Shown: in pieces, positions 19,280 through 44,308 of the stretch
How positions within the stretch are numbered: the stretch's first letter is position 1
Layout: each line of letters opens with the position of its first letter
Assembly (NCBI GenBank): GCA_015233405.1
Contig: JADFXT010000004.1
Location: 100,470 to 164,469 of the forward strand
Length of the DNA: 64,000 bases
Reading direction: 5' to 3'
Source of the DNA: Candidatus Omnitrophota bacterium
Lineage (GTDB): Bacteria; Omnitrophota; Gorgyraeia; Zapsychrales; Zapsychraceae
Program-made: the position numbers and the translations under genes
Notes under the pieces: model-generated
The model's input: the letters and a program-made list of their open reading frames with translations, nothing else
Databases searched by the model: none
What the model was told of the DNA's origin: nothing

Positions 19280-19897
19280 TTAATTTATCTTAAAACTTTC
19301 CCACTCCTTTACCCTTTTCCTAATAGCCTCAAGACCCTTATTAGCCAGATCAAATATCAGCTTAGAATTCAATTCAGCCTTTTCCCAACATTTTCTGTCA
19401 TTTATGTCCCCATATTGAAAATGTATAGAATGTAAGAGTGTTTGTTTCTCAAGTTCTTTTAGGATGAGATAAATTTCTTCTGGATAAAAAGGTTTAGCAT
19501 GTTCAACGGCATCATAAAATTTCTTTCCTATTTCGTATAATCTTTGTACACGAGTCTCTTTAATCTTCTCCTCTCGTACGCTTTGCACATCAACTATAGG
19601 CATAAGCAACTGCGCATAATCTCGCAACTCAACCAAATGTTTTGATAAAGTTAGAAGAATTTCGAACTCCTTCTCATAACGTCTTTGATGGATATATAAT
19701 TGGGATTGCAGTGATCCTTTCACAAACTCTACATCCTTAGTAATTTGACGAATATCTTCTTTTGTAGCAAGATGCTCCCCTTTCTTGCTAAAGTAGGCGC
19801 CTAAGAATGCGGCAAAACCCGTAACAACACAGAAACCTAAATATTGTAACCATTGCATAGCATTAACTTGTTGGAATTCTCGAGCTTCGGAAATCAT
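19280..19897 (-). CDS. hypothetical membrane-anchored helical protein
   Basis: 205 aa with one N-terminal TM helix (LGFCVVTGFAAFLGAYF) and then a charged helical region. It is the last gene of a four-gene co-directional cluster. Confidence 0.45.
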   Translation of the reverse strand: MISEAREFQQVNAMQWLQYLGFCVVTGFAAFLGAYFSKKGEHLATKEDIRQITKDVEFVKGSLQSQLYIHQRRYEKEFEILLTLSKHLVELRDYAQLLMPIVDVQSVREEKIKETRVQRLYEIGKKFYDAVEHAKPFYPEEIYLILKELEKQTLLHSIHFQYGDINDRKCWEKAELNSKLIFDLANKGLEAIRKRVKEWESFKIN

Positions 19898-19914
19898 ATC
19901 TCTCCTCCATCTGG

Positions 19915-20538
19915 TTATTTTTCCTTTTCTGGGGGCCGCATTAATATCTGATCACCATTTTGGACTTCTTTTAGGCAATCTTCTTTATAGGCCTTATATG
20001 CCACTTCCGCGAGGATTTCAATAACCTTATCCATTCTTTCAGCCATATCATCAAACATTAGCTGAACATAATGCTTAGGCGCTCTCATGGTGCAATTATA
20101 CTGAATGCTGTCATCCTTTCTTGGTTCTTCTGTCTTCGGCAGATCTTGTTTTTTCTTTCGGCCCTTAGGAGGAGAATCTAATTTACAAGTCATAGAATGA
20201 AGAACTGTAACTTCAATTTCTTCACCCGTTAGACTTCCTAAATAATTCTGGAATTCCTGCCGGCTGTGCTTTGAGCAATAGAACTTCTTACCTGAAACCG
20301 CCAGTTCCCCTATAAAAAGTTTATCTCCCTCGTCTTGAGCAACCCAGAGGAAACCTTTTAGACCGTTTTCTAATGTCACTTCTTGCTTCTGACCAGGCTT
20401 AGGTTTAGGCGTGAATCTTGGAGCCACCTCTTTATCTTTGGTAATGCAGACTGGGCATTTGGCCTTGATCTCGACGGGATTATCAAATGGTTCTTGCTCT
20501 CCTAGGATCATCTTGCAATGAGTACAAATTATTTTCAT
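19915..20538 (-). CDS. hypothetical zinc-ribbon protein
   Basis: 207 aa. The N-terminus has CTHC-x20-CPVC (a four-Cys ribbon) and there is a basic K/R-rich linker. No family recognised. Confidence 0.45.
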   Translation of the reverse strand: MKIICTHCKMILGEQEPFDNPVEIKAKCPVCITKDKEVAPRFTPKPKPGQKQEVTLENGLKGFLWVAQDEGDKLFIGELAVSGKKFYCSKHSRQEFQNYLGSLTGEEIEVTVLHSMTCKLDSPPKGRKKKQDLPKTEEPRKDDSIQYNCTMRAPKHYVQLMFDDMAERMDKVIEILAEVAYKAYKEDCLKEVQNGDQILMRPPEKEK

Positions 20539-20582
20539 ATAAGAATTTTCAATTTAGCATAACAATCAATATTATTACGGAA

Positions 20583-21479
20583 TCATTCGAAATTAAGATA
20601 TACATAGTTTTTATTACGGCTTACAATTCTTTCTCCCTCATAGTAAAGATCTCCTTTCAATTTACTATCAAATTCTTCGACATAAGTCGCCGACTCAGTC
20701 TTTAATAAAACCTTCTTAAACACTTCACTTTTCATTCGTTCCCCGTCTGAAATGTTTCTTTGACCTGCTTTGATGGTGGCTCTTATATAATTAAATGTAA
20801 AATTAGCCAAGGCATCAACAATACTCATTACTGGTTCTTGTTGGGCTGAATCAATTCTGAAATCACTTACATAAAATCTATCCCCATAATTCTTCTGAAG
20901 ATGAAAATTAATAAAATCAATTAAAGTTTTTTGATTGGGAATAGTGATTCTCCTCGTAAACTTCCACATATGCCCGCTGTTAGCTAATTTAATAGTTAAA
21001 TTAATTTTAGGATAATTGGGGATTTCTGCAACTTTGCGCAAAACCTCCATCACTGGGAAAATCCCCTGTTGAAATATTTGCTTCAACGTATTATCTAATC
21101 TGCCAAAACTTGAAACCCGACAGCATTTCTCAAAAGCCCTCCTATGCCCTTCTCCAATATTTTGGAATGTTTGTTTCTCAGCAAAAAGAATACAACTGAA
21201 TTTATATTTCGTTCTTTTCAACACTTCGTAGAAAATAGTAAATGCTTTTTCATAATCCAATCTTGCCTGGTTATATTTTCCTCGCATGCTTCTTGCGTGT
21301 AGAAAGCTCACCCCATTCTTGTTAAGCTTATTTTGTAAGATCAGCTCGATATCTTTATTTATTAATATACAAGAAAAACAAAGCAAATTTTCTGAGACGC
21401 TCCCTCCATCATCTATCAAGAGAACATTTTCCTGTCTAGGAAGCCACAATTTAGTTTCCTTATGATCTAAATACATCAT
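20583..21479 (-). CDS. hypothetical protein, DUF3800-like motif pattern
   Basis: 298 aa. LLIDDGGS (compare DESG), FLHARSM (compare the HA motif) and SIVDALANF (compare QxxD) appear in the DUF3800 order. This is from memory only. Confidence 0.4.
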   Translation of the reverse strand: MMYLDHKETKLWLPRQENVLLIDDGGSVSENLLCFSCILINKDIELILQNKLNKNGVSFLHARSMRGKYNQARLDYEKAFTIFYEVLKRTKYKFSCILFAEKQTFQNIGEGHRRAFEKCCRVSSFGRLDNTLKQIFQQGIFPVMEVLRKVAEIPNYPKINLTIKLANSGHMWKFTRRITIPNQKTLIDFINFHLQKNYGDRFYVSDFRIDSAQQEPVMSIVDALANFTFNYIRATIKAGQRNISDGERMKSEVFKKVLLKTESATYVEEFDSKLKGDLYYEGERIVSRNKNYVYLNFE

Positions 21480-21528
21480 GACATAAGTCCAATATTTTTA
21501 TGCAGTTTTCCTTGTCTCTACCCTGTTC

Positions 21529-22533
21529 TCAAACTCGTATCCGCTTTAACTTTGAATTAAGAATCAGAAACGTTGGAGAAAAAAGTTCAATAATTTTTCC
21601 ACTTTTTAAGCTATACGCGTGGCCTTTTTTGATATCTCGCCAAATGGGGCCTAAATCCCCTATTTTTACAATGTAATAGAAGCCAAACATGTTAGTTAAT
21701 GCTATTTTGCTTATGATATAATTACCTTTATTTTCTATTGTAAAAATATGGCCTTCCAGCGAATACTGTCTATCGGTTTCGTCTGCTAAAATATGACCTT
21801 TTTCGATATTTACTATCTTGGACTTTGGCATAACACCTGTTCGAACAAAATTTCTTATGGTGTCAAATTTTGAATCCAAAGCCTGACCGGCTCCATGAAC
21901 TTTTGCAAAATAATTAAATGCTATTTTCGCAATGGCTCTACAAATTATTAAATCGATTCCACCTCTAACCTCAACTTCCAGCTTGCCATCTTCTTTTATT
22001 GCGGTAATCGATAGATGATTATTCTTAGTCTCATCAATTTTCTTGCCTAATTTCTTGAGACGTTGAACGGCTTTTTTATATTCTTTGCTGTTGTAAGCAA
22101 ATAAATCGTATTTTCCTTTTATGTTTTTTATTTCTTCATCGCTCATATCTTCTATTAAAATTGATTTTTTCTTGCCGAAAATGTCACATATTAAAATCTG
22201 TGGGGGTAAATATAAACTATCGGTTTGTAAGAAGTCGGCGAATAAAATCACTCCCCGGAATTCTCCAAATCGGTCTTCATCCGGAATATTTATTCTTATT
22301 CGATTTTGTCTTATAGGTTTTTTGGATCGTGATCCGATCTTTTGAAGCCGCCAAATCCCTTCTATGCTATTGCCAGCTAATTGTCGGTCGATAGTTGCGC
22401 CCAATTCGACATTGCAATTCCTACAGACACAATCTAGCACCCAATTATCCGGGCAGCCGAAGGCTTTCGGAAAAACATGTTCCTCGGATGAATTATCTTT
22501 GATTATTTCTTCTTTGCAATAAAGACATTTCAT
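21529..22533 (-). CDS. HNH endonuclease domain protein with a large uncharacterised C-terminal domain
   Basis: The N-terminus has CLYC-x12-EHVFPKAFG-x12-CVCRNCN, a beta-beta-alpha-Me/HNH with a CxxC...CxxC zinc site. About 270 aa of unknown domain follow. Confidence 0.65.
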   Translation of the reverse strand: MKCLYCKEEIIKDNSSEEHVFPKAFGCPDNWVLDCVCRNCNVELGATIDRQLAGNSIEGIWRLQKIGSRSKKPIRQNRIRINIPDEDRFGEFRGVILFADFLQTDSLYLPPQILICDIFGKKKSILIEDMSDEEIKNIKGKYDLFAYNSKEYKKAVQRLKKLGKKIDETKNNHLSITAIKEDGKLEVEVRGGIDLIICRAIAKIAFNYFAKVHGAGQALDSKFDTIRNFVRTGVMPKSKIVNIEKGHILADETDRQYSLEGHIFTIENKGNYIISKIALTNMFGFYYIVKIGDLGPIWRDIKKGHAYSLKSGKIIELFSPTFLILNSKLKRIRV

Positions 22534-22758
22534 ATAACTAACCTAAAATAAAAAACCTTCGCCAAGCATATGCCCAACAAAGGTTTTACTTTTTTAACGT
22601 TCGGGGTTTATCCCTTCCAACTCGGGACGATTATGACTTCTTATAGCGTTAATTTATCACAACTGTTTAATTCGTCAATCTGTTTCTCTGACGCAGAATG
22701 AATTCTCTCCGGCGATCCAGAAATATAACTCCTCTGAGAGACCCTCTACTAATAGATT

Positions 22759-22787
22759 AAAAAAACGCCGCGGTTATAAACCGCGGC
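22759..22787 (-). terminator. intrinsic terminator after the terminase gene
   Basis: GCCGCGG-TTTATAA-CCGCGGC followed by TTTTTTT on the minus strand, 23 nt after the TerL stop. Confidence 0.65.
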
Positions 22788-22809
22788 ATTTTAGTAAACA
22801 CTATCCTTA

Positions 22810-24501
22810 TCACATCCTGTGGTCATTATACCACCCATAAGGGACAAGGCCGTCAGGTGTAGGATACTGTGGTACAGGTGAAATGGGCGGATCACCCGGC
22901 TCAGGAGGATAATGTGGACCGCCTGAAATCCAGAATGAAACTTGGTTAATCGGCAAGCTAAACACCTCCACAAGCATATGGACAGCGTCGGGGCCATCAT
23001 CGTATTTTCCTTTTGGAAAATATCTGAACTGATCCAAGAGCGTTTGATCAAGCTTATTGAAAATGATCGTGCCATTTTTTATCAGCGGATGTAATGACTG
23101 AATCCGCTCTCTTTTATTCTGAGTGTTCTTAATCGGAACAACTTCAGTTTGATACAGGCTTTCTTGTTTTATTCGTTTTTCCAAATCCTGAACCATGATA
23201 CTCTGGAAATAGTTCGCCTCAACGCCAAACTTTTTCACTTTATATCGCTTGCAGTACGCGATAATATCATTCACCGTATCATTCGGCGTCCGGCGCTTAA
23301 TATCGGCTTCAATCAAATATATCAAGCCATCCCGACGATCGCGCGCTCCAAGAATAATAGCTGAATAGTCTCCTTTATTGGTATATTCTCCAGAAGCCGG
23401 ATCGCATGAGCCCATGATATCGGCATAATTGCCCATCCACTGCAACAATTCTGCCGTAGAACGGTACATATTATTATGCGTTCTAAATTCCACGGGATTA
23501 TAGAGACTCCACTCAGAACTGACCGGCTCATTTTGTTTCTCGGAATCGAAACTTCCTTCAAGCTCCGACTCACGCATGACCATGAGATCATAATAATTCT
23601 CCTTTTCTTCCCATAAAACCTTTGTTCCTTCAAGCATCGCATCTTTATTATCAAGAAAAAAAGCAAGAGCAGCATTCTTTCCTGTTTTTCCCTTATAAGG
23701 CTCCCTATTATTGAAGATTAGTTTCCATTGCTGCCAGAGATCCTTTCTCTCTGCCCATTCAATAACGGATTTATATTTCCGCTTTTCCCAGCCGGGCATG
23801 GCGTCTTCATCAATGAGTTTCGCCAGAAGCGAATCATAATGCTGGATGGTCCCTACCACAGCGATAGTGGTCTTCACGGTACCCGCCTTAAGAACGGCTT
23901 TGGTAAACCAATCGAAGAGCTTTGCTCTTGATTCCTCTGACTGGGTATTTTCATCGTTTTCGATATCATCAACGATAATTAAATCCGGCCGCAAGGCTTT
24001 ATTGCGACGTCCACGAATCTTTTGACCGGCGCCGAGCGCAGTTACCTTAACTCCATTACGAGTTACGATCTCATTTCTTGCCCAGCGATCAGGTCTCGGC
24101 TTCTGCCCTATTTCGCAGACCTCAGGAAAACTTTTAATCAACCTTTCATTTGTTTCAAGCTCGTTCTTAATATGCGAAAGCATTGTATCTGCTTGATCGC
24201 TAGTATCCGATAAGAGAAGGATAAAACCTGCCTTCTTATAACAGATATTCCACAACGGGAATGCGAAACTAAAAAGAACACTCTTAGCAGATCCCCTCGG
24301 CCCTGCGACCGCCAAACGCTTTCCTCCTTCTTCTATTAAGGAAATATTATCGAGCATCGCGTAGATATCATCATGGAATGCACACGACTTTGTTTTTAAA
24401 TAATGAGATAAATATAACGCTGTAAACGCTTTGAACGACTTTTTTCCAGCTTCTCGGCGGAGACGCTCCTCTTCATTAAACATGTTGTTATTGTCCATCA
24501 C
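22810..24501 (-). CDS. terL: phage terminase large subunit
   Basis: 563 aa. It has Walker A AGPRGSAKS, Walker B LIIVDDIEND, and a C-terminal RNase-H-like nuclease pattern GSCDPASGEYTNKGDYSAIILG...YLIEADI. Confidence 0.85.
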   Translation of the reverse strand: MMDNNNMFNEEERLRREAGKKSFKAFTALYLSHYLKTKSCAFHDDIYAMLDNISLIEEGGKRLAVAGPRGSAKSVLFSFAFPLWNICYKKAGFILLLSDTSDQADTMLSHIKNELETNERLIKSFPEVCEIGQKPRPDRWARNEIVTRNGVKVTALGAGQKIRGRRNKALRPDLIIVDDIENDENTQSEESRAKLFDWFTKAVLKAGTVKTTIAVVGTIQHYDSLLAKLIDEDAMPGWEKRKYKSVIEWAERKDLWQQWKLIFNNREPYKGKTGKNAALAFFLDNKDAMLEGTKVLWEEKENYYDLMVMRESELEGSFDSEKQNEPVSSEWSLYNPVEFRTHNNMYRSTAELLQWMGNYADIMGSCDPASGEYTNKGDYSAIILGARDRRDGLIYLIEADIKRRTPNDTVNDIIAYCKRYKVKKFGVEANYFQSIMVQDLEKRIKQESLYQTEVVPIKNTQNKRERIQSLHPLIKNGTIIFNKLDQTLLDQFRYFPKGKYDDGPDAVHMLVEVFSLPINQVSFWISGGPHYPPEPGDPPISPVPQYPTPDGLVPYGWYNDHRM

Positions 24502-25171
24502 AAACCTCCTTGTTGTTTTGTAGTTCGTCCTTTTTCTTAGTCAGCTCAGAGATCTCTTCTACTATTTCAGCTTTCTCTATTTTTTGCTGAAGCAGTTTAA
24601 TATTCTCTTCTGTTTTCTCATCTAAAGTTCCTGTTTCCTTAGAAACTCTTTCTATTTCTTGAAGATCTTTTCTTAACTGTGAATATGCTTTTGTATCACC
24701 TCCTTCATAATGATGGTAGATATCGCCTACCAACTCTTTTGGCTTTAAAGGCATAAGGCCCAAACTTTGGAGTCGTTCGATTAACTCAACAAGAACACGC
24801 CAAGCGGAAACTCTGGCTTGGATTTTATTCGCATCCGAAACATTCTTCCCATTGCTAAGCCGAACTAGATAGTCGTGATGCGCTAATCCTTTTTTGAAAA
24901 TATCGCCTGACATCTGCTTTGCAAATTCGATACCGGGAGTTAAGGAATTCCTCTCACGTATTTCTCGAACATCGCGCTGAATGGTTTTTTCGCTGCGTTT
25001 AAGAATTTGTGCAACTTGAACTTCGGAGTAACCTTCCCCAACAAAAACCTCAACGCAGGATAATCGCACCTCTTTTGTTAAGGTCCGAGGATCAACAACG
25101 CCCGCCCTAACATCTTCGATAACTGAAATAATGGGGGTTTCTTGATTAAATGATTCTTTATCATCAACCAT
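24488..25171 (-). CDS. HTH protein in the terminase small subunit position
   Basis: 227 aa. It has the HTH YSEVQVAQILKRSEKTIQRDVREIRE and a C-terminal coiled coil. It overlaps the TerL start by 14 nt. Confidence 0.5.
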   Translation of the reverse strand: MVDDKESFNQETPIISVIEDVRAGVVDPRTLTKEVRLSCVEVFVGEGYSEVQVAQILKRSEKTIQRDVREIRERNSLTPGIEFAKQMSGDIFKKGLAHHDYLVRLSNGKNVSDANKIQARVSAWRVLVELIERLQSLGLMPLKPKELVGDIYHHYEGGDTKAYSQLRKDLQEIERVSKETGTLDEKTEENIKLLQQKIEKAEIVEEISELTKKKDELQNNKEVCDGQ

Positions 25172-26432
25172 TTTTCACCCCCTCTAGGTATTTCTTACGC
25201 ACTTCTTCCGAAACACCATCAATTCCCTTATAGGCGATGTATCTGAACACCGATGCGTCGACATACCGCGGATCCAGCTCGCATCCATAACAGCGACGAT
25301 CTAAACTGTCACACGCGATCAAGACCGACGACGATCCTAAAAAAGTATCCAGAACAATATCGCCGCGCTTAGAACTATTACGAATCGCACGCGCAGAAAG
25401 CTCGACGGGCTTCTGTGTTGGATGGACATAACTCTTGGTGGGATCTCTGTTAATTTCCCAAACATTATTCTCGCCCGGTTTTCCAGCCCAATAATGCGGA
25501 GCTCCTTTGAGCCAGCCATACAAACATTGTTCTGTTCTAAAACAGTAATCCGCATAAGTTATAGCTGCTGATTCTTTCAACCAGCAGATTACGCAAGAAA
25601 CATGAAAGTCGAGATCTAACATAATCTGATACATCGGAGGAAACTGCCTATGCCCTTGCCAAACATAAATTGCGCCTCCCGGCTTAAGAAAGTTTTTTAT
25701 GTTTGTGGAAACTTTCCTCATCCAAACCTCATATTCATCTTGCGGCATATTATCTGAATAAATCTGCGTCCATTTGCGCGACTTCTTCGGTCTTGTATCC
25801 GGATTTGGTTTAGATCCTCCGCAATAATTAACGTTATAGGGGAAATCGCAGTCGACGAGATCTGCTTGCTCATCTCCCATTAAGATTTTTATATCTTCCG
25901 GGTTGGATGAGTCTCCGCAAAGTATCCGGTGAGGCCCGAGTTGAATCAGGTCGCCTTTTTTTGTGATTGGAATTTTTATTTGTTCGACAGTGGCATCAAC
26001 ATCGAAATCATCTTCCTTGCCATCAGTGTACTTATCTAAAATCTGGCTGATTTCAGGAAGATCAAAACCCGTAAGCCCAATATCAAAATCAGGAAGCTTC
26101 GAGAGATCATCTAAAAGCACAGCTAATTTTTCTTTGTCCCAATCGCCTCTTATTTTGTTTAAAGCGAGATTAGCGGCCTTTTCCTTCTCAATGGAGAAAT
26201 CAACTATAACAGCTTCAATTTCAAGCACTCCCTGAGCTATTAGAATCTTAACGCGCTGATGGCCCGATATGATACGTCCAGTTCGTTTATTGATGACTAT
26301 TGGCTCAATAAAACCAAATTCCTCTATACTCCGCTTGAGCGCCTCGTACTCTGCATCCCCCGGCTGAAGATCGCTCCTGGGGTTATAAGCCGCAGGACTA
26401 ATCTCAGACACCTTAACTCTTTCAATCAACAT
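25164..26432 (-). CDS. ParB-like nuclease domain / DNA N6- or N4-methyltransferase fusion
   Basis: I moved the start to MLIERVKV (ATG at 26432, with a GGAGGT Shine-Dalgarno). The ParB-N region has NPR...ISGHQR. The catalytic motif is DCDFPYN (DPPY-type) and the SAM motif is VLDTFLGSSS. Confidence 0.8.
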   Translation of the reverse strand: MLIERVKVSEISPAAYNPRSDLQPGDAEYEALKRSIEEFGFIEPIVINKRTGRIISGHQRVKILIAQGVLEIEAVIVDFSIEKEKAANLALNKIRGDWDKEKLAVLLDDLSKLPDFDIGLTGFDLPEISQILDKYTDGKEDDFDVDATVEQIKIPITKKGDLIQLGPHRILCGDSSNPEDIKILMGDEQADLVDCDFPYNVNYCGGSKPNPDTRPKKSRKWTQIYSDNMPQDEYEVWMRKVSTNIKNFLKPGGAIYVWQGHRQFPPMYQIMLDLDFHVSCVICWLKESAAITYADYCFRTEQCLYGWLKGAPHYWAGKPGENNVWEINRDPTKSYVHPTQKPVELSARAIRNSSKRGDIVLDTFLGSSSVLIACDSLDRRCYGCELDPRYVDASVFRYIAYKGIDGVSEEVRKKYLEGVKNG

Positions 26433-26559
26433 ACGTACCTCCTTTTTATTGGTTACTAATGAATTAAAAAACACCGATAGGAAATAAAAAATCCCTATTA
26501 AAACTAAAAAATATTTTTTAAACATTGTGGCTTCTCCTCATTTTGATTTAGGCTATAAA

Positions 26560-26592
26560 ATAAAAAATCCTGTAAGGCGAACCTTACAGGAT
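26560..26592 (-). terminator. intrinsic terminator closing the defence gene array
   Basis: The minus strand reads ATCCTGTAAGG-TTCG-CCTTACAGGAT followed by TTTTTTATTTT. Confidence 0.65.
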
Positions 26593-26641
26593 AAACTATA
26601 TGATACAAAGACACCCCCGGCAAAGACAGACAGGAAGCGTA

Positions 26642-27256
26642 TTACCTTAAATGTTGATAATTAAGATTTATTATCTCTTTACACCTCCTATAATCTCGCT
26701 TGACGGACATCTTTGCATAACTCAAATTGCCGCCGGCAACCTCTTTAGGATAGAATTTTTTAGCTATTTCTTTGAGGCTCAATTTTTCCCAAGAATCAAA
26801 AACCCCCAAAAATCTATCATAAACGTAAACATTCACTCTTCCAGTCTTAACTTTCCTTAAAGACTGCCTATATCGCTTAAAATGAGGCGCCAACTGTTTC
26901 TCAAATTCCATAAGAATCGTTCTTTTAGGAAAATTAAGATATATTTCGAATGTGCCTTTTAAAAGATTGCCTAATTTCGTTGAATCAGCCTTAAGCAGTA
27001 CCGGAAAAGGCAGAAAGATATTCCTCTTTAATAGTTTTACATTCTCCTCATAAGTCTTACTTGGATCAGCTGGGCCACTGAGCCCCCAACCAATATAAAA
27101 CGCCTGCTCCACAACATCTTTACCCAATTTAGAAGATCTCTTACCTGCTACATACTTTTTATAAAAATTGATATACTTCTCGTTTCTTCTAAAAAATTCC
27201 CAGCGATATTTAGGACTGAGGCTCGCTATTATCTTAGAACTGGTTTTCTTTGCCAT
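26642..27256 (-). CDS. putative transcriptional regulator with an N-terminal WEFFRRN motif (DUF6499-like)
   Basis: 204 aa. YRWEFFRRNEKYINFY resembles the WEFLRRNxxY motif of DUF6499/DUF2285-type proteins of mobile elements. The C-terminus has an HTH-like LSLKEIAKKFY... Confidence 0.45.
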   Translation of the reverse strand: MAKKTSSKIIASLSPKYRWEFFRRNEKYINFYKKYVAGKRSSKLGKDVVEQAFYIGWGLSGPADPSKTYEENVKLLKRNIFLPFPVLLKADSTKLGNLLKGTFEIYLNFPKRTILMEFEKQLAPHFKRYRQSLRKVKTGRVNVYVYDRFLGVFDSWEKLSLKEIAKKFYPKEVAGGNLSYAKMSVKRDYRRCKEIINLNYQHLR

Positions 27257-27332
27257 TGCTACTCGCTTTTTAAACTTTATTCTTGCAGCTTAATCGTAAC
27301 TATTCTTTAATTTTATCTTGGGCATCCATCAT

Positions 27333-28178
27333 TCACAAAGACTGTGGTAAGACAATCAACAACGATTCCTTCTTTTCCTTTAACTCCATGTAATATCTCT
27401 GCCACCCATCTTCTGCCATAAGGCAATTAACAATTTTATTGTGATAATTTGCAAACCACGCATATTTCCTCAAAACGTGCAAATTTTCTTTATGCTCCCT
27501 CACTTTGTTATTTAGAATATCTACTACATTCCGAAGAATTGTTGGAGCCAAATAATAATCCGTCGCAACTGAAGCATAGATATTCAAACTATATAAGCCA
27601 TCTTCGTCGCGCAATAAGGAAGAATCTGGCCTGTGTTTCTTAAGACAAAGAGTGTCTACATCAATCCCTTCAAAAGCACTACTATCAACAATTATTCTTG
27701 GCACATCAGCGATATTCTCTGCCATCTCATATGCTTTTATCAAACCTCGACTAAAAATAAAATTACCTCCATCTAAGTTTTCAAACTGCCGCTGGTAGTA
27801 CTGGCCCCTAACAACGGCACCACGAAATAATAGTCCTGTTCCCCTTATACAATCTTGTAAAAGATAAGAAATCAATGTTAAAAACACATTGAGAATTATC
27901 ACACGTAAAGGATCCCTTTCTTCGTCTCCTCCTAAAAATCTTTGCCTGTCAAAAACAATAACGAAGGCGTCGCTTAGAACCTCAACAGAAACACAGGTTC
28001 TAAATACACCGGATTTACCAAGCTCGCTCTTTTCAATATAATCACGCCATCTCTTTAATGCGGAGTCAATAGGGGCGAAAAGGAAATTTGCCTCATCGGT
28101 AGTCATAACCCGATCGCGATATCCCAACATATCTAAGTACGCAATTAGACAATCTGAACTATTTACTTCTTTTTTCAT
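27333..28178 (-). CDS. hypothetical protein with a nucleotide-cyclase/GGDEF-like palm motif pattern
   Basis: 281 aa. LIAYLDMLGYRD (strand 1 with an acidic residue), EVLSDAFVIVFD (GDxF-like hairpin) and LLFRGAVVRGQYY...SRGLIKAYEMAE appear in the order of class III cyclase/GGDEF/mCpol palm domains. Confidence 0.35.
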   Translation of the reverse strand: MKKEVNSSDCLIAYLDMLGYRDRVMTTDEANFLFAPIDSALKRWRDYIEKSELGKSGVFRTCVSVEVLSDAFVIVFDRQRFLGGDEERDPLRVIILNVFLTLISYLLQDCIRGTGLLFRGAVVRGQYYQRQFENLDGGNFIFSRGLIKAYEMAENIADVPRIIVDSSAFEGIDVDTLCLKKHRPDSSLLRDEDGLYSLNIYASVATDYYLAPTILRNVVDILNNKVREHKENLHVLRKYAWFANYHNKIVNCLMAEDGWQRYYMELKEKKESLLIVLPQSL

Positions 28179-32935: not shown

Positions 32936-33709
32936 TTATCTTAACAAACTATCCTTAAAATCATTAAGATTTTCTTTTGGCGAGATCTTGCGGAAGACAA
33001 AGAGGTGTTCATGCATGATGAGAAGAAAATCTTTTTGCTGAGCATTCCAATATCTTGTGGTGGCGCAATTATGTTGAGTTTTAATGATGTCTTCTTTAAG
33101 AATAAAACCCGCCCTTAAGAACCTCTGCATTACATTAAAAGCCAACGGAACAAAATGCCTTCGTCGTCTTGTGTCGCCCATAAGAATAGCGCAATACTTG
33201 CCTGGCTTTAAAACTCTTAAACACTCTTTGGCAACCGAATCAATTTGATCGCAAAATTTGGTCAGGCTATTAATGGCCGACAAATCTCCTTCGATTTCCT
33301 TCTCGCTATATTGAATAATATTTAAGTACGGCGGATGTGTTACAACAAGATCCACTGATTCATCTTCTATTTTTTCAAGTTTTCTTGCATCCCCGATACA
33401 ACATTCTTGTTTTGACTTATTATCTGCATCAAAATTAAGCACTTCTTTACACAATTTTATGGCATTAGGATTAATATCTAACCCAATAGCGTTTCGATTT
33501 AATAATTTTGCTTCGACGAGTGTTGTGCCGCCACCCACCATAGGATCTAAAATTAGTTCGCCTTCTTGGGAATATCTAAGGATAAGATTTCTGGGAATTT
33601 GCGGCGCCCAATTGCCACGGTAGGTTGGCTTATGCGTTGCCCAATTGCCACGTTCCGGGAAGGACCAGACAGTCGTTGTTTCTAGTTTAAAATTTATTTC
33701 TTTACTCAT
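32936..33709 (-). CDS. DNA N6-adenine/N4-cytosine methyltransferase (second methylase)
   Basis: 257 aa. It has the SAM motif ILDPMVGGGTT, followed by the catalytic DLVVTHPPY. Its start overlaps the endonuclease stop by 8 nt. Confidence 0.8.
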   Translation of the reverse strand: MSKEINFKLETTTVWSFPERGNWATHKPTYRGNWAPQIPRNLILRYSQEGELILDPMVGGGTTLVEAKLLNRNAIGLDINPNAIKLCKEVLNFDADNKSKQECCIGDARKLEKIEDESVDLVVTHPPYLNIIQYSEKEIEGDLSAINSLTKFCDQIDSVAKECLRVLKPGKYCAILMGDTRRRRHFVPLAFNVMQRFLRAGFILKEDIIKTQHNCATTRYWNAQQKDFLLIMHEHLFVFRKISPKENLNDFKDSLLR

Positions 33710-34631
33710 TTCCTAAAACTATCCTTTCCAATATGCATTTTTCAACCATATCAAGGCTTAATAAATAATCATTCTGTTCGAATGTTTCTCTAAGCGGTCT
33801 TGAAGTAGTTTTCCATCCTTCTCCATCCGTTATCCAGATGAATTTATGCTTGCCTTTTAAAACATTTGCTAAATCTCGATATTCTCCCGCTGTGGCTTTT
33901 AACTTTGAGCCTCCTCCGCTATAGAAATTCACCTCAAGAATAAAAATCTCTTTTTTATTACTTATAACAAAATCATATCTTCTGGACGATTTATCTACGG
34001 GCACATTTACCTTAAATTTCTCTTTAATCTTATTCGCTGATGCTTCTTTCAAATACTCTAACCCATTTCTCTTGCATATATCTTGAATAAAGCTCTCAAC
34101 AATATCCTCCATTATAGTTCCGCCTCGATTCTTACGACCATTGCTATCCAGACCTGCCTCGACTCCAATCATATAATCAACCAGGTTCTTAATTCTTTTG
34201 CCAACCAGCAGTTCTTTTAATTTTGTTTCTTTAACAAAAGTTAAACACTTATTAATATCGTCATCCGTCAGCTTGTTCAAATCAAAGTTATAGTCTTCAT
34301 AAACTAACTTTTTGTTTTTATAATCGACCAGGATTTTAAATTTCTTTGTATTTTCCCCGTCACGAACTACCAGAGCCGGAATTATCCTTACAACTTCGGG
34401 GTGCTTCTTTAACAAACCCTTAAATTCTTCATCAAAATTATCTTTTCCAACTAAATAATTAAGGATATTAAGGCCAATCTCAATCTCTTTAACATTCTCA
34501 AAAACTTTCTCCCAATTTACAAAATAAGACCATACCAGTGTTGAGGGCTTAAGGTTATTAAGTAAATACTCAAAAACAGCATCTTTGTCCTTACAGCCAA
34601 TGATTTCTTTATAACTATTAAGATATTTCAT
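33702..34631 (-). CDS. DpnII/MboI-family GATC restriction endonuclease
   Basis: I moved the start to MKYLNSY (ATG at 34631). NLVDYMIGVEAGLDSNGRKNRGG, EVNFYSGGGSKLKATA, WITDGEGW and LRETF match my recollection of R.DpnII almost block for block. Confidence 0.85.
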   Translation of the reverse strand: MKYLNSYKEIIGCKDKDAVFEYLLNNLKPSTLVWSYFVNWEKVFENVKEIEIGLNILNYLVGKDNFDEEFKGLLKKHPEVVRIIPALVVRDGENTKKFKILVDYKNKKLVYEDYNFDLNKLTDDDINKCLTFVKETKLKELLVGKRIKNLVDYMIGVEAGLDSNGRKNRGGTIMEDIVESFIQDICKRNGLEYLKEASANKIKEKFKVNVPVDKSSRRYDFVISNKKEIFILEVNFYSGGGSKLKATAGEYRDLANVLKGKHKFIWITDGEGWKTTSRPLRETFEQNDYLLSLDMVEKCILERIVLGNE

Positions 34632-34648
34632 AGTCTTCCTTTCTAAAA

Positions 34649-35563
34649 TTAATAATTCATAACTAATATCTCTGTTACTTCCCCGCGCTTGTCTGCTTGG
34701 CAATTAATCATTCGATTAGCTTTGATCCTCTCAATATGATATCCACGATACAAATCATCAAAAAAATTATCCTTAGGATTAACATTTTTAGGATCTGAAT
34801 TACTTAACATAATGGATGCGCCTTTTTTATCAAGAATCCCGTAAATCTTTCTCAGGCGTTTTTGCTCACTATCATCAAAAATATCCTTAGAGTAACTTGT
34901 AAAACTTGCGGTCGATGACAGCGGCCTATAGGGCGGGTCAAAATAAACAAAAGATTCGCTGTTCGCATGTTCTAAACATAAAGCAAAATCTCCACAAATT
35001 ACCTCAGCTTTTTGCAAAAGATGATGCACAGCAAGAAGATTCTCCTCATTACAAATCGTTGGATTTTTATATCGCCCGAATGGAACATTAAACTCACCTG
35101 AAGAATTTACTCGATAGAGGCCATTAAAACATGTCTTATTAAGAAAAATCAAAAGCGCTGCACGATGAACAAAACTATTCGCAGCCTTTCTTCTTAAATA
35201 CGTATTAAATTCCTCTCGCTTCTGATAAAACATTTTCTCTCGCCCACTATCCGAACTTGATAAATATTCTAATTCGAACTGATCTAATTCTTTTAAAAGT
35301 TTCTTGATGTCTTTTTTGATAACTTGATAACAGAGGTTAACGGCTGGGTTGATTTCATACAAATATGCTTCCTCAAAATCATAATGCTCCGCAAGCCAAA
35401 AGAAAAGCGCTCCGCCGCCAAGAAATGGCTCAAAATATTTCTTAATCCACCCTTCTTTCAAAGAGTCTGGAAGATAATCAGCAATTTGATCAATCAACTG
35501 ACCTTTGCCGCCAGCCCACTTTAGAAACGGCTTAACTTGTCTTTCCGTAGTAATCATTTTCAC
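34649..35563 (-). CDS. Dam-family DNA adenine methyltransferase (GATC)
   Basis: 304 aa. It has the N-terminal PFLKWAGGKGQL, FEPFLGGGALFF and the catalytic YFDPPY. Confidence 0.9.
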   Translation of the reverse strand: MKMITTERQVKPFLKWAGGKGQLIDQIADYLPDSLKEGWIKKYFEPFLGGGALFFWLAEHYDFEEAYLYEINPAVNLCYQVIKKDIKKLLKELDQFELEYLSSSDSGREKMFYQKREEFNTYLRRKAANSFVHRAALLIFLNKTCFNGLYRVNSSGEFNVPFGRYKNPTICNEENLLAVHHLLQKAEVICGDFALCLEHANSESFVYFDPPYRPLSSTASFTSYSKDIFDDSEQKRLRKIYGILDKKGASIMLSNSDPKNVNPKDNFFDDLYRGYHIERIKANRMINCQADKRGEVTEILVMNY

Positions 35564-35564
35564 C

Positions 35565-36188
35565 TCAAAAATTAGGAATTGTGGTTACAACAACACCCTG
35601 CACTTGGAAATCATTTGTCAAAACAATCGGCCGATGCTGCTTGTTGCTTGATCTCGGCCTTAAAACATACGTCTCACCGCCGATAAGAAATTCTTTTATC
35701 ATCGCCTCATCATCAATCAACGCCACAACCGTGTCCCCGCTTTTCGCTGTCGTTTGCTGGCGGACTAAAACCAAATCGCCATCGTTGATCCCCTTCTGGT
35801 TCATGGAATCTCCCCGGGCCTGAATCAGAAAATACCGGTGCGGCGGCTTGGCTAATTTCACACTAACCGGGATTTGAGCCTGAATATTTTCTTCGGCAAG
35901 CATGGGCGCCCCACAAGCTACCCTGCCCACCAAAGGCACATCCACGGTTTGAGCGCGAGTTGTATCATCACCTAAACTTTTAATAAATTGCAAGTTGCCG
36001 TCCTCTTTGCGCCGTAAAACACCTTTCTTCATTAACTTATCAACAATTAAAGACGCTGAACGTGGAGATCGATAACCAAGAGAAGACATGAGTTCGCGCA
36101 TGGAAGGAATACGACCGACGTGCATGAGGGAGTTGCGAATTTCGCGGATGGCTTCTAATTCTTTATTAGTTACTGCTGCGGCTTGCAT
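35565..36188 (-). CDS. LexA-type repressor (wHTH + S24 autopeptidase)
   Basis: I moved the start to MQAAAVTNKELEAI (ATG at 36188). It has the LexA-like wHTH IPSMRELMSSLGYRSPRSASLIVDKLMKKGVL, a cleavage-site region RVACGAPMLAEE, the S24 Ser in GDSM and a Lys in MIKEF. Its stop abuts the Dam start. Confidence 0.8.
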   Translation of the reverse strand: MQAAAVTNKELEAIREIRNSLMHVGRIPSMRELMSSLGYRSPRSASLIVDKLMKKGVLRRKEDGNLQFIKSLGDDTTRAQTVDVPLVGRVACGAPMLAEENIQAQIPVSVKLAKPPHRYFLIQARGDSMNQKGINDGDLVLVRQQTTAKSGDTVVALIDDEAMIKEFLIGGETYVLRPRSSNKQHRPIVLTNDFQVQGVVVTTIPNF

Positions 36189-36205
36189 GTATACACTATT
36201 ATACA
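36188..36205. promoter_or_regulatory. candidate operator palindrome overlapping the repressor -10 element
   Basis: TGTATA-N6-TATACA is a perfect inverted repeat. On the minus strand a consensus TATAAT (36203-36198) lies 9 nt upstream of the repressor ATG. Confidence 0.45.
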
Positions 36206-36315
36206 GGGAAGATAATTTGTCAATAATATTTTTTCGTAAAAAAATTTCTGCTCTATATAACTTGCTATCTCTCAAATTGTATGGCTTATATGACACTAAC
36301 GAAAGGAGAGAACCC

Positions 36316-36789
36316 GTGGATGAAACCATTGCCGCTCAGATAGAAACGCTAAAAAATATGCCACTCTTAGATCTTCAAAACAAATATCAAGAGCTGTTCG
36401 GCACAAAAGAAACGCCTTGTGATAATAAGGTATACATTTTAAGAATGATCGCTTACAAGCTCCAAGAAATGAACTGCGGGGGCTTGTCTGATGAGGCCAA
36501 ATCTAAACTTGAGATCCTTACAACGAGATATGACCCTATTAATAATAAAGCGCTTCGCCCCCAGGTTACATCCGTCGGGAAAGAAGTTAAGGCGCTGCCG
36601 TTCTTGAGAGACAAACGCCTTCCGATTCCGGGGACTGTTATTACAAAGAAGTATAAAGGGCAGCTGATCAGGGTGAAGGTCCTTGAAAAAGGATTTGAAC
36701 ACGACAATGTTTATTATAAAAGCCTGTCTGCGCTTGCAACCAAAATCACCGGGGATCATTGGAATGGCTATAACTTTTTTTGTATCTAG
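36316..36789 (+). CDS. DUF2924 family protein (recombinase accessory)
   Basis: I moved the start to the GTG at 36316 (AAGGAGAG Shine-Dalgarno). LRMIAYKLQEMNCGGLS...LPIPGTVITKKYKGQLIRVKVLEKGFEHDNVYYKSLSALATKITGDHWNGYNFF follows the DUF2924 pattern usually found upstream of large serine recombinases. Confidence 0.7.
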   Translation: MDETIAAQIETLKNMPLLDLQNKYQELFGTKETPCDNKVYILRMIAYKLQEMNCGGLSDEAKSKLEILTTRYDPINNKALRPQVTSVGKEVKALPFLRDKRLPIPGTVITKKYKGQLIRVKVLEKGFEHDNVYYKSLSALATKITGDHWNGYNFFCI

Positions 36790-36797
36790 AAAAATAT

Positions 36798-38423
36798 ATG
36801 GAAAATAACGAGACCAAAGAGAAAAAACAGCTTAATTGCGCGATTTATACTCGCGTCTCCACCACTGAAGGCTTGGAGCAACAATTTACCTCCCTTGATA
36901 ACCAACGCGAAGCAGCTGAAAGTTACATTCAAAGCCAAAAATCAGAAGGCTGGACGGCATTACCGGAGCATTACGACGATGCAGGCTTTACCGGAGCCAA
37001 TACGGACAGACCTGCTTTACAGAAACTTGTTGAAGATATCAAAGCGCACAAAATTAACTGCGTTGTTGTCTATAAAGTTGATCGTCTGTCGCGCTCGCTT
37101 CTGGATTTCAGCAAATTATTGGAGTTCTTCGATCAAAACAACATTGCCTTTGTCTCTGTCACTCAGCATTTTAATACCAATACCTCGATGGGCAGGCTAA
37201 CCTTAAACATCCTCCTTTCGTTTGCCCAGTTCGAGCGGGAAATCATCAGCGAACGAACCAAAGACAAGATGGCCGCTTCCAAGAAGAAAGGGAAATGGGT
37301 CGGCGGATGCGTTCCTCTAGGTTATGACATCGATAGAGAAAACCGCAAGCTGGTCATTAATCCGGAGGAAGCAAAAATTGTGCGTGAAATATTTGATGCC
37401 TACCTCAAAGAAAGAACGCTCATGGCTGCCGTAGGGGTTATCAATGACAGAGGCTACGTAACGAAAAAATACCAATCGCTGGGAGGCAAAAAACGCGGCG
37501 GGATCAAATTTCAAGTAACATCAATTAATCAGATAGTCAAAAACGTATGCTACACCGGCAAGGTAAAGCACGATGGCATCCTATATCCTGGGGAACAAGA
37601 ACGAATTATATCCGACGAGGTTTTCACAAAAGCCCAGGAGCTGATAGCGGCAAATAGGCGCGTGTTTTTTAATAAGCCGAAGCACAACAAAATAAGTTTA
37701 CTTGGGCATATCCTACGCTGCAAAGATTGCGATGCTGTGATGAATATTTTTTATTCTGAAAAAAGAAACGGAAAATGCCGATACTTCCATTATGTATGCC
37801 TGAGCGCACACAAACGCGGCTACAAAACATGCCCTACCAAACTTGTGAACGCCAACCTTATGGATAATAAAGCCATGGCTTGCTTAAGATCTATTACGGA
37901 TGACCCGAGGATAAATAGCGAAAAGTGGGACGTTCTTGGGCTTGATAAAAAAATATTAATTATTAGATCAATTATTAAACAAGTCCGCTACAGTGGAGCC
38001 AATGAAATACTTGAAATCCAGCTACAAGACGATACGGTACATCAATTTAAGGTTTTAAAACAGGACTTGAAACAGGTCTCCCCTCTGTCAAAAGAACGCT
38101 TAATAAAGACCGAGCCGCAATTAAGGCAAAACCTGCTCCTTGCCCACCAGATCCAGAAACTTCTCTTCGAAGGGAAATCGAACAGTTTAAAACAAATAGC
38201 CGGATGGCTCAATATAAGCCCGCAAAGAATCAACCAACTAAGGAACCTTGTCCTCCTCTGCCCCAAAATTCAAGAAAACATCTTTCTGGGAGAAAGCTCC
38301 ATAATCTCCCAAATCCCCGAGTACAAGCTGCGAAAAATAACGGATACGATGGGTTGGCAGGAACAGCAGAATCTTTGGCAAAAACTGCTAAATACTGCCA
38401 GCGAACAATCCAAACATCTCTAG
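36798..38423 (+). CDS. large serine recombinase (integrase)
   Basis: The catalytic domain has AIYTRVSTTEGL...SLDNQ...VVVYKVDRLSRS. A recombinase domain and a zinc ribbon (CKDCDAVM...CLSAHKRGYKTC) follow, then a C-terminal coiled-coil region. Confidence 0.9.
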   Translation: MENNETKEKKQLNCAIYTRVSTTEGLEQQFTSLDNQREAAESYIQSQKSEGWTALPEHYDDAGFTGANTDRPALQKLVEDIKAHKINCVVVYKVDRLSRSLLDFSKLLEFFDQNNIAFVSVTQHFNTNTSMGRLTLNILLSFAQFEREIISERTKDKMAASKKKGKWVGGCVPLGYDIDRENRKLVINPEEAKIVREIFDAYLKERTLMAAVGVINDRGYVTKKYQSLGGKKRGGIKFQVTSINQIVKNVCYTGKVKHDGILYPGEQERIISDEVFTKAQELIAANRRVFFNKPKHNKISLLGHILRCKDCDAVMNIFYSEKRNGKCRYFHYVCLSAHKRGYKTCPTKLVNANLMDNKAMACLRSITDDPRINSEKWDVLGLDKKILIIRSIIKQVRYSGANEILEIQLQDDTVHQFKVLKQDLKQVSPLSKERLIKTEPQLRQNLLLAHQIQKLLFEGKSNSLKQIAGWLNISPQRINQLRNLVLLCPKIQENIFLGESSIISQIPEYKLRKITDTMGWQEQQNLWQKLLNTASEQSKHL

Positions 38424-38732: not shown

Positions 38733-38810
38733 TGGTAGCCCCAACCGGATTTGAACCGGTGTTTTCTGCCTGAGAAGCAGACGTCCTGGACCAGGCTAGA
38801 CGATGGGGCC
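38733..38810 (-). tRNA. tRNA-Glu (anticodon CUC), CCA encoded
   Basis: The minus strand reads GGCCCCATCGTCTAGCCTGGTCCAGGACGTCTGCTTCTCAGGCAGAAAACACCGGTTCAAATCCGGTTGGGGCTACCA. The acceptor is 7 bp, the anticodon arm is TCTGC/TTCTCAG/GCAGA, and the T-arm is ACCGG/TTCAAAT/CCGGT. Confidence 0.9.
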
Positions 38811-38867
38811 GAAATTCTTTTCTTTGTTTACATCTTCCCCTCGAGACCGCTCTGCCGCGTTGCGGCA

Positions 38868-38911
38868 CTGGACTCCCGCTTCGCGGGACAGGCAGGCTAG
38901 ACGATGGGGCC
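38868..38911 (-). pseudogene. tRNA-Glu 5' fragment (nt 1-25) with a 19-nt hairpin inserted in the D-loop
   Basis: The minus strand reads GGCCCCATCGTCTAGCCTG[CCTGTCCCGCGAAGCGGGA]GTCCAG. The flanks are identical to the intact gene 57 nt downstream. No acceptor 3' strand or T-arm follows. Confidence 0.7.
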
Positions 38912-39089
38912 ATAAAATGAACGTTAGAATCATACCATATTTTTTCTTAAGGTCAACCTCAACTTTCCGGCTTCTCATCGACAGGCAAGGAGACATCAGT
39001 CCGTCGCCGAAAATCGGGATAAAGATTGACACCATTTTTAGCGAAGGATAGAATAAACATCAATTAAAGCAATTCAGGAGATCATTCGC

Positions 39090-40277: not shown

Positions 40278-40285
40278 AATCCATT

Positions 40286-41755: not shown

Positions 41756-41770
41756 CAGAAGGAATCCCTG

Positions 41771-42700: not shown

Positions 42701-42766
42701 GATTTACTACAATTGCGGATTTAATCCGATAGGATCTTTTCTTTTACGACAATTCTGTTTTAAAAA

Positions 42767-42985: not shown

Positions 42986-43074
42986 AAATCTTTCCTTAAA
43001 GTAACATCCTTTATTTTAAATATACCACAGAATTTATAACCTATCCATCCAAAGCCTGAGACAAAAACCATTTC

Positions 43075-43782: not shown

Positions 43783-43842
43783 GGGAACTTTCTTAAAAAA
43801 TTTGAACTATTTAAAATAGTTTATAAGTGGGAAGAATTAAAC

Positions 43843-43913: not shown

Positions 43914-43949
43914 AATACCTGCAGTCAAACTCTTAACACCCACCTTAAA

Positions 43950-44195: not shown

Positions 44196-44226
44196 GAAAC
44201 TATTTCATTGGGGGGAGTTTTCAAAC

Positions 44227-44308
<82 letters not shown>

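Follow-up and report, generated by a model that had tools for sequence, protein, structure and literature searches.

A lexA-headed restriction-modification module in Omnitrophota and its recurrence across the phylum

The accounts usually given of how restriction-modification (R-M) genes are controlled invoke C-proteins, autoregulation by the methylase or antisense RNA. In C-protein Type II systems (PvuII, Esp1396I, Csp231I; PMC3874152), an autoregulated regulator gene lies upstream in the R-M operon and feedback from its product governs when and how strongly the genes are expressed; the C-proteins themselves are small Xre-type helix-turn-helix (HTH) activator-repressors, usually encoded before the endonuclease and blind to signals. 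Here we describe a lexA gene followed on the minus strand by a methylase, a DpnII-family endonuclease and a second methylase (M-R-M; 36188 to 32936) in a 64,000-nt stretch of Candidatus Omnitrophota DNA (GenBank assembly GCA_015233405.1, contig JADFXT010000004.1, positions 100,470 to 164,469; hereafter the window). Unlike the C-protein systems, the window has as its regulator a full LexA with an S24 peptidase, which precedes the methylase and would respond to RecA and DNA damage. The putative operon holds no C-protein open reading frame (ORF) or C-box; between 36329 and 32936 no small ORF of C-protein type (about 80-100 aa, Xre-type HTH) is present, LexA being the sole DNA-binding protein. Two broad reviews (PMC3874152 and PMC12707154) contain no case of LexA-controlled R-M, the latter with zero mentions of LexA, and targeted literature searches together with an Omnitrophota genome survey returned no prior report of a LexA-headed or SOS-controlled R-M operon.

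CapW/BrxR (WYL domain; PMC11662680), CapH-CapP (bioRxiv 10.1101/2022.04.27.489752), CapK-CapS (PMC13373217) and, for R-M, RptR (PMC12255303) are repressors encoded upstream of swappable immune operons whose expression is raised by damage, and several of them are also found beside R-M systems. Regulators of the CapW, CapH and CapK type are dedicated accessory proteins that sense single-stranded DNA or use a partner protease or kinase; unlike them, the window has the canonical SOS repressor, with immune genes predicted to lie in its own transcription unit. Pfam and PADLOC searches of the repressor and its neighbours revealed no WYL domain, no HTH with a partner metallopeptidase and no kinase-substrate pair. 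The module would work like a C-protein operon and like the damage-responsive defence regulators, and belongs to neither family. The E. coli lexA-dinF operon is headed by lexA and carries an SOS gene. In lexA-headed SOS operons (lexA-dinF and the polymerase/DnaE2, recA and umuC types) the downstream genes stand on a LexA-autoregulated promoter and hence belong to the SOS regulon by construction; unlike theirs, the passengers in the window are exchangeable R-M and defence genes rather than genes of repair, mutagenesis or efflux.

We compared 80 lexA loci, out of 242 matches, from species-representative genomes and several metagenomic contigs. The related set holds 32 distinct Omnitrophota-type loci, in which LexA is at least 64% identical to that of the window, and the comparison set holds 49 LexA loci from other phyla. 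Among the occupants of the slot behind the Omnitrophota lexA are DpnII-type cassettes and DpnI (in L018 and as a relic in L042), as at the pneumococcal DpnI/DpnII/DpnIII locus (PMC4471560), where alternative GATC-related cassettes are exchanged at one site via conserved flanks, DpnII has two methylases and dpnA is competence-induced. The pneumococcal locus has metabolic-gene flanks, M-M-R order and ComX control, whereas the window has a regulator flank, M-R-M order and LexA. Integrons combine a LexA-regulated integrase with promoterless cassettes expressed from Pc. Common to integrons and the lexA loci are a fixed promoter platform, exchangeable co-oriented cassettes, a LexA link and, in the window and L024, a divergent recombinase; the lexA loci differ in that they usually hold one cassette, that a recombinase is found in 2 of 32 and is of serine type, and that exchange appears homologous or illegitimate within lexA. 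No tyrosine IntI and no attC-type repeated cassette ends were found, a repeat behind lexA being present in 7 loci only and without covariation. Lambda CI and SXT SetR are S24 repressors of mobile elements. Elements of this kind carry an S24 repressor beside an integrase, and some genomes have two lexA genes (as reported for Leptospira, PMC3789691); in contrast, the LexA of the window is near-identical to LexA encoded outside recognisable elements, and its partners are R-M rather than lysogeny genes.

The LexA protein, its promoter and the R-M genes of the window

The lexA gene (36188-35565, minus strand; ATG 36188, stop TGA 35567-35565) encodes 207 aa; a longer ORF from 36329 is not supported, because every orthologue starts at the position of 36188. 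The protein matches Pfam LexA_DNA_bind (32.2 bits, cut-off 23.7) and Peptidase_S24 (95.2 bits) as well as the TIGR00498 lexA equivalog (144.1 bits, cut-off 110.95), and aligns end to end with the E. coli LexA structures 1JHH and 7B5G. Relative to E. coli LexA, Ser128 (GDSM) corresponds to Ser119, Lys165 (KEF) to Lys156 and Cys92-Gly93 to the Ala84-Gly85 scissile bond, and all three positions are invariant across 28 orthologues. Homologues number more than 4000, with hundreds of metagenomic proteins 75-88% identical, and a Candidatus Omnitrophica protein of identical sequence carries the name 'repressor LexA'. LexA proteins 80-88% identical to that of the window are encoded, behind the same promoter and operator, amid housekeeping genes with no recombinase nearby. 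In other phyla, relatives of 40-62% identity have canonical SOS genes downstream: a Y-family polymerase with DnaE2, or RecA, or UmuC. Among the 2.9 million viral contigs of IMG/VR, LexA relatives are found in 3 loci only, with at most 53% identity. Judged by its sequence, the repressor is a canonical LexA and not CI-like, because it has the LexA winged helix instead of an Xre HTH.

The Pfam domains and the E. coli alignment agree with the original prediction of a winged-helix LexA domain and an S24 peptidase with a GDSM serine, a KEF lysine and a cleavage region. That prediction also offered a CI-like maintenance repressor of an island; an island at a tRNA-Glu gene is indeed present, and the CI-like part falls on the LexA winged helix and on the rarity of LexA relatives in viral contigs.

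Three R-M genes follow lexA: a DpnM/Dam-class N6-adenine methyltransferase (35557-34649, 302 aa, stop 34651-34649), a DpnII-family Type II restriction endonuclease (34631-33702, 309 aa, stop 33704-33702) and a second methylase of the N6_N4 class (M2; 33709-32936, 257 aa). The order foreseen for the window, an M-R-M DpnII-type system headed by a LexA/S24 repressor, is confirmed, with no C-protein. M-R-M is also the gene order of MboI. The first methylase matches Pfam MethyltransfD12 (E 5e-61) and TIGR00571 dam (290 bits, cut-off 115), has DpnM as its closest structure in the Protein Data Bank (2DPM, E 1.6e-52) and shares 78% identity with the methylase directly behind lexA in L001. The endonuclease covers the full Pfam DpnII model (PF04556, E 1e-90, 304 bits; PADLOC REase_II, E 7e-93) and is 82% identical to the L087 endonuclease, and M2 (Pfam N6_N4_Mtase, E 1e-27, 97.9 bits; PADLOC MTase_II, E 1e-83) is 68% identical to its counterparts in L001 and L087. 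Family membership alone points to GATC as the predicted specificity; GATC occurs in host DNA at 0.98 of expectation, so that it is not avoided, which speaks neither for nor against R-M activity.

The junctions between these genes are tight. The methylase ATG had been placed at 35563, 1 nt from the repressor stop; the two genes do adjoin, but base 35563 begins a GTG and the ATG lies at 35557. A GAGGTG Shine-Dalgarno (SD) sequence that overlaps the lexA stop codon precedes this ATG, the junction TGAggtggaaATG of lexA stop and methylase start occurs likewise in L001/L002, and a truncated dam relic in L042 also begins MITT. ATG 35557 is the likely start, which gives a lexA-methylase gap of 7 nt (1 nt if GTG 35563 were used) and leaves no room for a separate promoter there. 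The coordinates confirm 17 nt between the methylase stop and the endonuclease ATG at 34631 and an 8-nt overlap of the endonuclease stop with the M2 ATG at 33709 (ATGAGTAA), both as predicted. Together with Pbe-like genes further downstream, lexA and the R-M genes form an unbroken co-oriented minus-strand run (36188 to 28260), and no terminator-like hairpin was found on the minus strand from 36188 to 27000.

A promoter scan and conservation in about 30 loci locate the lexA promoter and putative LexA operator at 36189..36223 on the minus strand. The -35 element TTGACA (36223-36218) and the -10 element AATAGT (36200-36195) are separated by a 17-nt spacer, and an inverted repeat GTATA-N6-TATAC (36204-36189; alternatively TGTATA-N4-TGTATA) spans the -10 element and the start, the predicted operator sequence of the window being GTATAATAGTGTATAC. 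About 30 orthologous loci share TTGACA, a 17-nt spacer, AATA(C/G)T, GTATAC and ATG, arranged as TTGACA...GTATAATA(C/G)TGTATAC-ATG, and neither they nor the window have an SD sequence ahead of the lexA ATG. Because this geometry puts the start at the ATG, transcription probably begins at or a few bases from its A, and a leaderless lexA mRNA is predicted. A second LexA group carries TGTATG repeats at the same promoter positions.

The operator motif occurs once in the window, at lexA, and in 452 kb of related loci it is confined to lexA promoters plus one L051 site; the viral contigs hold 29 exact matches, about chance level by a rough estimate and in mostly unrelated contexts. GTATA-N6-TATAC is our candidate LexA box for Omnitrophota and a lead for further work. 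With promoter-like sites scored as matches of 12, the lexA promoter (10/12) is the best-matching minus-strand site close to the operon; equal matches lie near the tRNA (38956) and inside the PbeA-like gene (32429), and sites inside lexA, dam, dpnII and M2 reach at most 9/12. The L051 site (L051:16480-16506, TGTATAGGGTTGTATAATACGGTATAC) lies about 30 nt 5' of a gene beginning MKTYTMTETAKMLGVHRQTMINWIRKGW (excisionase/MerR-type HTH), which may be a LexA-controlled mobile-element gene.

We favour, at a probability of roughly 0.6, the reading that this is a lexA-headed R-M module whose R-M genes lie in a LexA-autoregulated, damage-induced transcription unit. A self-cleaving LexA would be expressed from a self-repressed, SD-less promoter and would bind GTATA-N6-TATAC over the -10 element and the predicted start. 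One mRNA would start at the lexA ATG, extend over the three R-M genes and perhaps take in the Pbe-like genes as well, with the first methylase translationally coupled to lexA, and negative autoregulation would keep R-M expression at a low, homeostatic set-point. After DNA damage or phage attack, RecA filaments would provoke LexA self-cleavage and derepression, with the methylase rising first and the endonuclease next. Since the divergent recombinase promoter region abuts the same operator, the recombinase promoter may be affected too. Of the two options in the original prediction, wiring of R-M expression to RecA-dependent self-cleavage is the better supported, because the protein is a LexA equivalog with cleavage residues, promoter and operator are conserved, the junction is tight and the linkage recurs with unrelated R-M systems.

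If this holds, a poorly studied phylum of ultra-small, partly predatory bacteria would couple first-line immunity to the SOS response via the lexA transcription unit, and the theme of damage-induced defence seen with CapW, CapH-CapP and CapK-CapS would reach the master regulator itself. What would surprise specialists is the phylum-wide wiring and the cassette platform, whose functional steps we infer.

Recurrence and exchange of R-M systems behind lexA

An R-M system lies downstream of lexA on the same strand in 26 of the 32 related loci. The gene right after lexA is a methylase in 23 of the 32; three further loci have an R-M system with RadC or Vsr first, or a DpnI gene, and the other six hold Bro-N with SSB, ORF6N or unknown genes. 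By comparison, the 32 loci contain 283 other ORFs, one of them methylase-like (Fisher p about 1e-26, uncorrected for phylogeny), and a methylase stands first after lexA in 0 of the 49 loci from other phyla. The window, first noticed as a single operon, is one instance of this overlooked phylum-wide pattern, which suggests that Omnitrophota tie restriction to the SOS response. The gene after lexA could serve as a simple genomic marker for R-M systems and possibly new defence genes.

The partner systems are mutually unrelated, with at least nine kinds by Pfam, the DpnII type included. N6_N4 methylases are combined with MvaI/BcnI and a further N6_N4 methylase, with TdeIII (among others in L016, from the completely sequenced Velamenicoccus archaeovorus LiM), with HNH or with EcoRV; an Eco57I/TaqI-type methylase is combined with an N6_N4 methylase and a 319-aa protein; C5 methylases follow RadC, or follow Vsr and precede a HaeIII fragment; and DpnI and two further N6_N4 methylases complete the series. 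Slot genes are always co-directional with lexA and begin with a methylase, or with Vsr or RadC and then a methylase; an endonuclease is never first, except for the methylase-less DpnI in L018. Gaps between lexA and the R-M genes measure 5-110 nt, and 5-40 nt in several types; no promoter would fit into the 5-40 nt gaps of at least six cassette types, among them one with an SD sequence overlapping the lexA stop. Different cassettes, for example those of L013 and L016, have a conserved short leader 5' of their first gene. Other accessory genes (HicAB, Fic, primase-polymerase, HTH_17) are also often found downstream of lexA. The slot behind lexA would be a site for cassettes, and in Omnitrophota its occupant is almost always an R-M system.

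Strict co-inheritance, in which the R-M type would track LexA phylogeny, was rejected, the types being incongruent with the LexA tree. A single LexA clade (88-98% identity) carries TdeIII-type, MvaI-type and Vsr/C5-methylase cassettes, the first two of which also stand behind other clades. Within one R-M type, LexA identity rises together with R-M identity, and endonucleases are often better conserved than LexA. Pairwise DNA comparison of L051 and L155 reveals common flanks on both sides of different cassettes, and L013/L015 share with L016 lexA and downstream lipase-type genes around a different cassette. In most other pairs, homology starts sharply 40-59 nt upstream of the lexA ATG, that is, at the promoter, even where lexA and the R-M genes have a DNA identity of 85-89%. 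Upstream of lexA, no gene order conserved over the whole phylum was found, save among close relatives and in the window-L024 pair.

Two loci preserve relics of such exchange. L021 has a duplicate of the last roughly 120 nt of lexA (L021:8650-8770) between the intact lexA and an MvaI-type cassette. In L042 (8001-13180), lexA is followed by a newer cassette of Vsr, a C5 methylase and a C-terminal piece of HaeIII. Behind it come a displaced 3' fragment of lexA (aa 124-207), still fused to a truncated dam (aa 1-174), then a C-terminal DpnI fragment and a fragment of M2. Dam-type and DpnI-type remnants thus lie side by side, a pairing that would be incompatible if active. The L042 and L021 relics point to entry of cassettes via recombination within lexA, conserved lexA serving as the left homology arm, and so to a natural case of cassette exchange anchored on a regulator gene.

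The R-M module of the window is itself a mosaic, with lexA and dam resembling L001, and dpnII and M2 resembling L087. From 36235, just upstream of the -35 element, to 34650 the window resembles the L001 lexA-dam region (75% DNA identity; LexA 86%, Dam 78%), and from 34813 to 33065 it resembles L087 (74% DNA identity; DpnII 82%). As a separate observation, the place of DpnII between Dam and M2 is taken in L001 by a 180-aa protein (L001:11555-12097) that is unrelated and matches PD-(D/E)XK weakly; the L001 endonuclease is exchanged inside a conserved methylase pair.

A wider and less probable reading is that the Omnitrophota lexA with its promoter and operator would be a dedicated platform for the expression and exchange of immune cassettes. 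The SOS repressor of the cell would also control the R-M system, or now and then another defence gene, that occupies the slot. Restriction would then be damage-inducible phylum-wide, lexA (perhaps with an 11-bp repeat behind it) would capture cassettes, and the unit would move between chromosomal sites and islands.

That repeat is part of an element of about 45 nt that is conserved in seven loci, where it separates the lexA stop from the first R-M gene whatever the cassette type or LexA group (L008:4183-4223, L010:8634-8674, L022:836-877, L024:8646-8686, L025:8659-8699, L027:8674-8715 and L028:8634-8677). It consists of an 11-bp inverted repeat, CAATGTGTAGC...CTGCACATTG, whose C-rich loop (TCCCC...TCCCCCTC) complements the GAGGAG SD sequence downstream. 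An Rfam search returned tRNAs only, and RNAalifold on the seven copies gave the 11-bp stem with no compensatory changes, one G-to-A change producing a U-A pair; lacking covariation, an RNA structure is not favoured over a DNA site. The element might act in translation as an anti-SD hairpin, or be a site for protein binding or for recombination.

Similar arrangements are seen beyond the related set. A Goldiibacteriota metagenome-assembled genome (MAG; L046:3136-12278) has a tandem lexA pair; behind the first gene come Dam, two proteins of 449 and 164 aa and an M2-like methylase, and behind the second a 1219-aa SIR2-domain protein. This layout extends LexA-headed defence genes beyond R-M systems and beyond Omnitrophota. 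On an AT-rich metagenomic contig (L138:4301-7599), a 226-aa S24-peptidase protein, 30% identical to LexA and with no LexA_DNA_bind match, is encoded 21 nt upstream of Dam-DpnII-M2, and serine-recombinase-like genes flank the group. Several MAGs labelled Bacteroidales or Bacteroidetes (L049, L035, L047, L053, L057, L058, L069 and others) encode a canonical LexA 55-62% identical to that of the window, followed by Y-family and DnaE2-type polymerases (by Pfam in L049 and by gene sizes in the others). Bacteroidetes are reported to have no canonical LexA (PMC8565304); either mis-binning of contigs or a mobile lexA-mutagenesis cassette may account for these loci.

The tRNA-Glu island and alternative readings

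Several points weigh against damage-inducible control of the R-M genes. Only one operator site was found outside lexA promoters, which does not define an SOS regulon. The closest endonuclease relative, L087, has the same recombinase and the same M-R-M genes behind its own promoter region, with no lexA, so that the R-M system does not depend on LexA; most of 65 metagenomic DpnII-family loci surveyed also have no LexA upstream. The idea that the DpnII cassette always travels with lexA was rejected on these same grounds. Frequent occupancy of the slot could stem from the convenience of recombination rather than from regulation. An internal promoter in the 3' part of lexA or in dam is possible, the 9/12 matches there being at about the chance rate. 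Finally, a second lexA may lie just outside the window, making the window copy accessory. A Bro-N-type gene cut by the right end of the window (63254-64000, minus strand) is 69% identical to the gene after the L154 lexA and 55% identical to that of L020, and its likeness to the L154 gene suggests a second lexA just past 64 kb.

The module lies in an island of about 19.5 kb (from about 19.3 to 38.5 kb in the window) that would have been integrated 3' of a tRNA-Glu by a serine recombinase. tRNA-Glu(CTC) (38733..38810, minus strand; ARAGORN) faces the island with its 3' end and marks the right border. Next to it lies a large serine recombinase gene (36780..38423, plus strand; 547 aa; Pfam Resolvase, Recombinase and Zn_ribbon_recom), the probable island integrase, whose product shares 70% identity with the L087 recombinase and 54% with the L024 one; the block shared with L087 runs from 38548 to 36317, nucleotide homology ending at 38548. 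A DUF2924 gene (36316..36789, plus strand; GTG start, 157 aa; E 3e-33, phrog_11806) and lexA point away from each other, with the lexA operator in the 127 nt between them (36189-36315); the divergent pair recurs in L024. The left flank (5317-12454, GlmS to RNA methyltransferase) and the right flank (38733-51947: tRNA-Glu(CTC), FIST, histidine kinase, response regulator and carbamoyl-phosphate synthase) are collinear with L188 and L190, with protein identities of 42-89% and 38-83%, respectively. Between these flanks L188 and L190 have only 2-6 unrelated genes, with no lexA, R-M system or recombinase, which places the module in a variable region, within a low-GC island. The tRNA adjoins the FIST gene in the island-free L188 and L190, and the recombinase in L024. 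The more distant L024 has, at the same tRNA, recombinase-DUF2924-lexA and then a different R-M system; the shared layout is either an old resident arrangement or the outcome of independent integration of related elements. A comparison of the recombinase flank with the left portion of the island gave no att-type repeat longer than 12 nt, and thus none that marks a left border.

This setting is what would be expected if LexA were mainly a maintenance repressor of the island, in the style of phage CI, SXT SetR or a prophage-borne second lexA, while another lexA served as the SOS regulator of the cell. The divergent DUF2924 and recombinase genes (excision) would then be silent until damage, and the R-M and Pbe-like genes would be lysogenic-conversion cargo expressed from the repressor promoter. 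The absence of the module from syntenic relatives, the operator within the divergent spacer, the layout repeated at the same tRNA in L024, and the terminase and ParB-domain methylase of the island all fit. So do three MAGs with two lexA paralogues, whose operators are of the TGTATA and TGTATG variants, and the Bro-N hint of a second lexA. The second lexA of Leptospira, reportedly located in a prophage-like region, offers a parallel.

Nevertheless, we consider this reading rather unlikely. A phage CI/SetR-type identity was rejected, as the N-terminal domain of the LexA equivalog matches the winged-helix LexA_DNA_bind and not HTH_3 or an Xre-type CI domain. Inside its tRNA-Glu island lexA is divergent from DUF2924 and the recombinase, as such a repressor would be, yet 30 of the 32 related loci have no recombinase nearby, LexA of 80-88% identity with an identical promoter and operator stands behind housekeeping genes, and the IMG/VR relatives are three and distant. 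No lytic or replication module faces the repressor. V. archaeovorus, with a complete genome, contributes one locus among the 80 of 242 matches compared, and it is of the R-M-linked type, a weak hint that this lexA is the sole one.

It is improbable that the adjacency has no regulatory meaning and that lexA, as one of the best conserved DNA segments of the phylum, is a homology anchor or hot spot for selfish R-M cassettes with promoters of their own, read-through from lexA playing no part: displaced lexA 3' ends and decayed cassettes in L042 and L021, cassette types incongruent with the LexA tree, endonucleases often more conserved than LexA, the lexA-free R-M genes of L087, the other accessory genes behind lexA and the swapping of pneumococcal DpnI, DpnII and DpnIII cassettes by flanking homology (PMC4471560) would suit it, whereas the junctions of at least six cassette types have no promoter space, the constant co-direction and methylase-first order are not predicted by a neutral pad, and a short leader is kept between different cassettes. 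These alternatives and the damage-inducible module are partly compatible and differ mainly in what is taken as the primary function.

Further genes of the island and its surroundings

Downstream of M2 lie four minus-strand genes, with gaps of 46, 13, 23 and 1 nt from M2 onwards: a PbeA-like PLD-helicase (32889-30817; PADLOC PbeA, E 7e-220), a 56-aa ORF (30803-30633), a PbeC/DndD-like ATPase (30609-28705; PADLOC PbeC, E 8e-92) and a dnd_assoc_4-like protein of 147 aa (28703-28260). Given this spacing, it is possible that they continue the lexA transcription unit. A phosphorothioate-dependent Pbe system combines pbeABCD with the dndCDEA genes for modification. NCBIfam dnd models score under their cut-offs on the genes of the window, and no dnd modification genes were found in a scan limited to the island genes; the Pbe-like system may be independent of phosphorothioation, or its partner genes may lie elsewhere.

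The rest of the low-GC island (19280..28178, minus strand; GC 33-37% versus 42-50% in the flanks) encodes unknown genes, the ParB-domain methylase (26525-25164; phrog_498), the large terminase (24501-22810; phrog_38, E 3e-110) and an HNH protein (22533-21529). Pfam and PHROGs revealed neither capsid nor portal genes in the island; with a terminase and neither of these, the island resembles a phage remnant or a satellite-like element. Left of the island, 12432-18823 encodes a 512-aa protein (42% identical to an L190 gene product) and 385-aa and 706-aa proteins, and includes a Fic/SoFic-like gene (17735-18823; PADLOC SoFic, E 8e-55). This segment differs among the window, L188 and L190, so that the variable region at tRNA-Glu exceeds the island. 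In L087, about 3 kb after a TIR-domain gene (L087:8711-11789) holds no ORF longer than about 70 aa, and the contig has a terminase fragment on the other side of its serine recombinase; it is possible that L087 represents the same island family unintegrated or in another arrangement.

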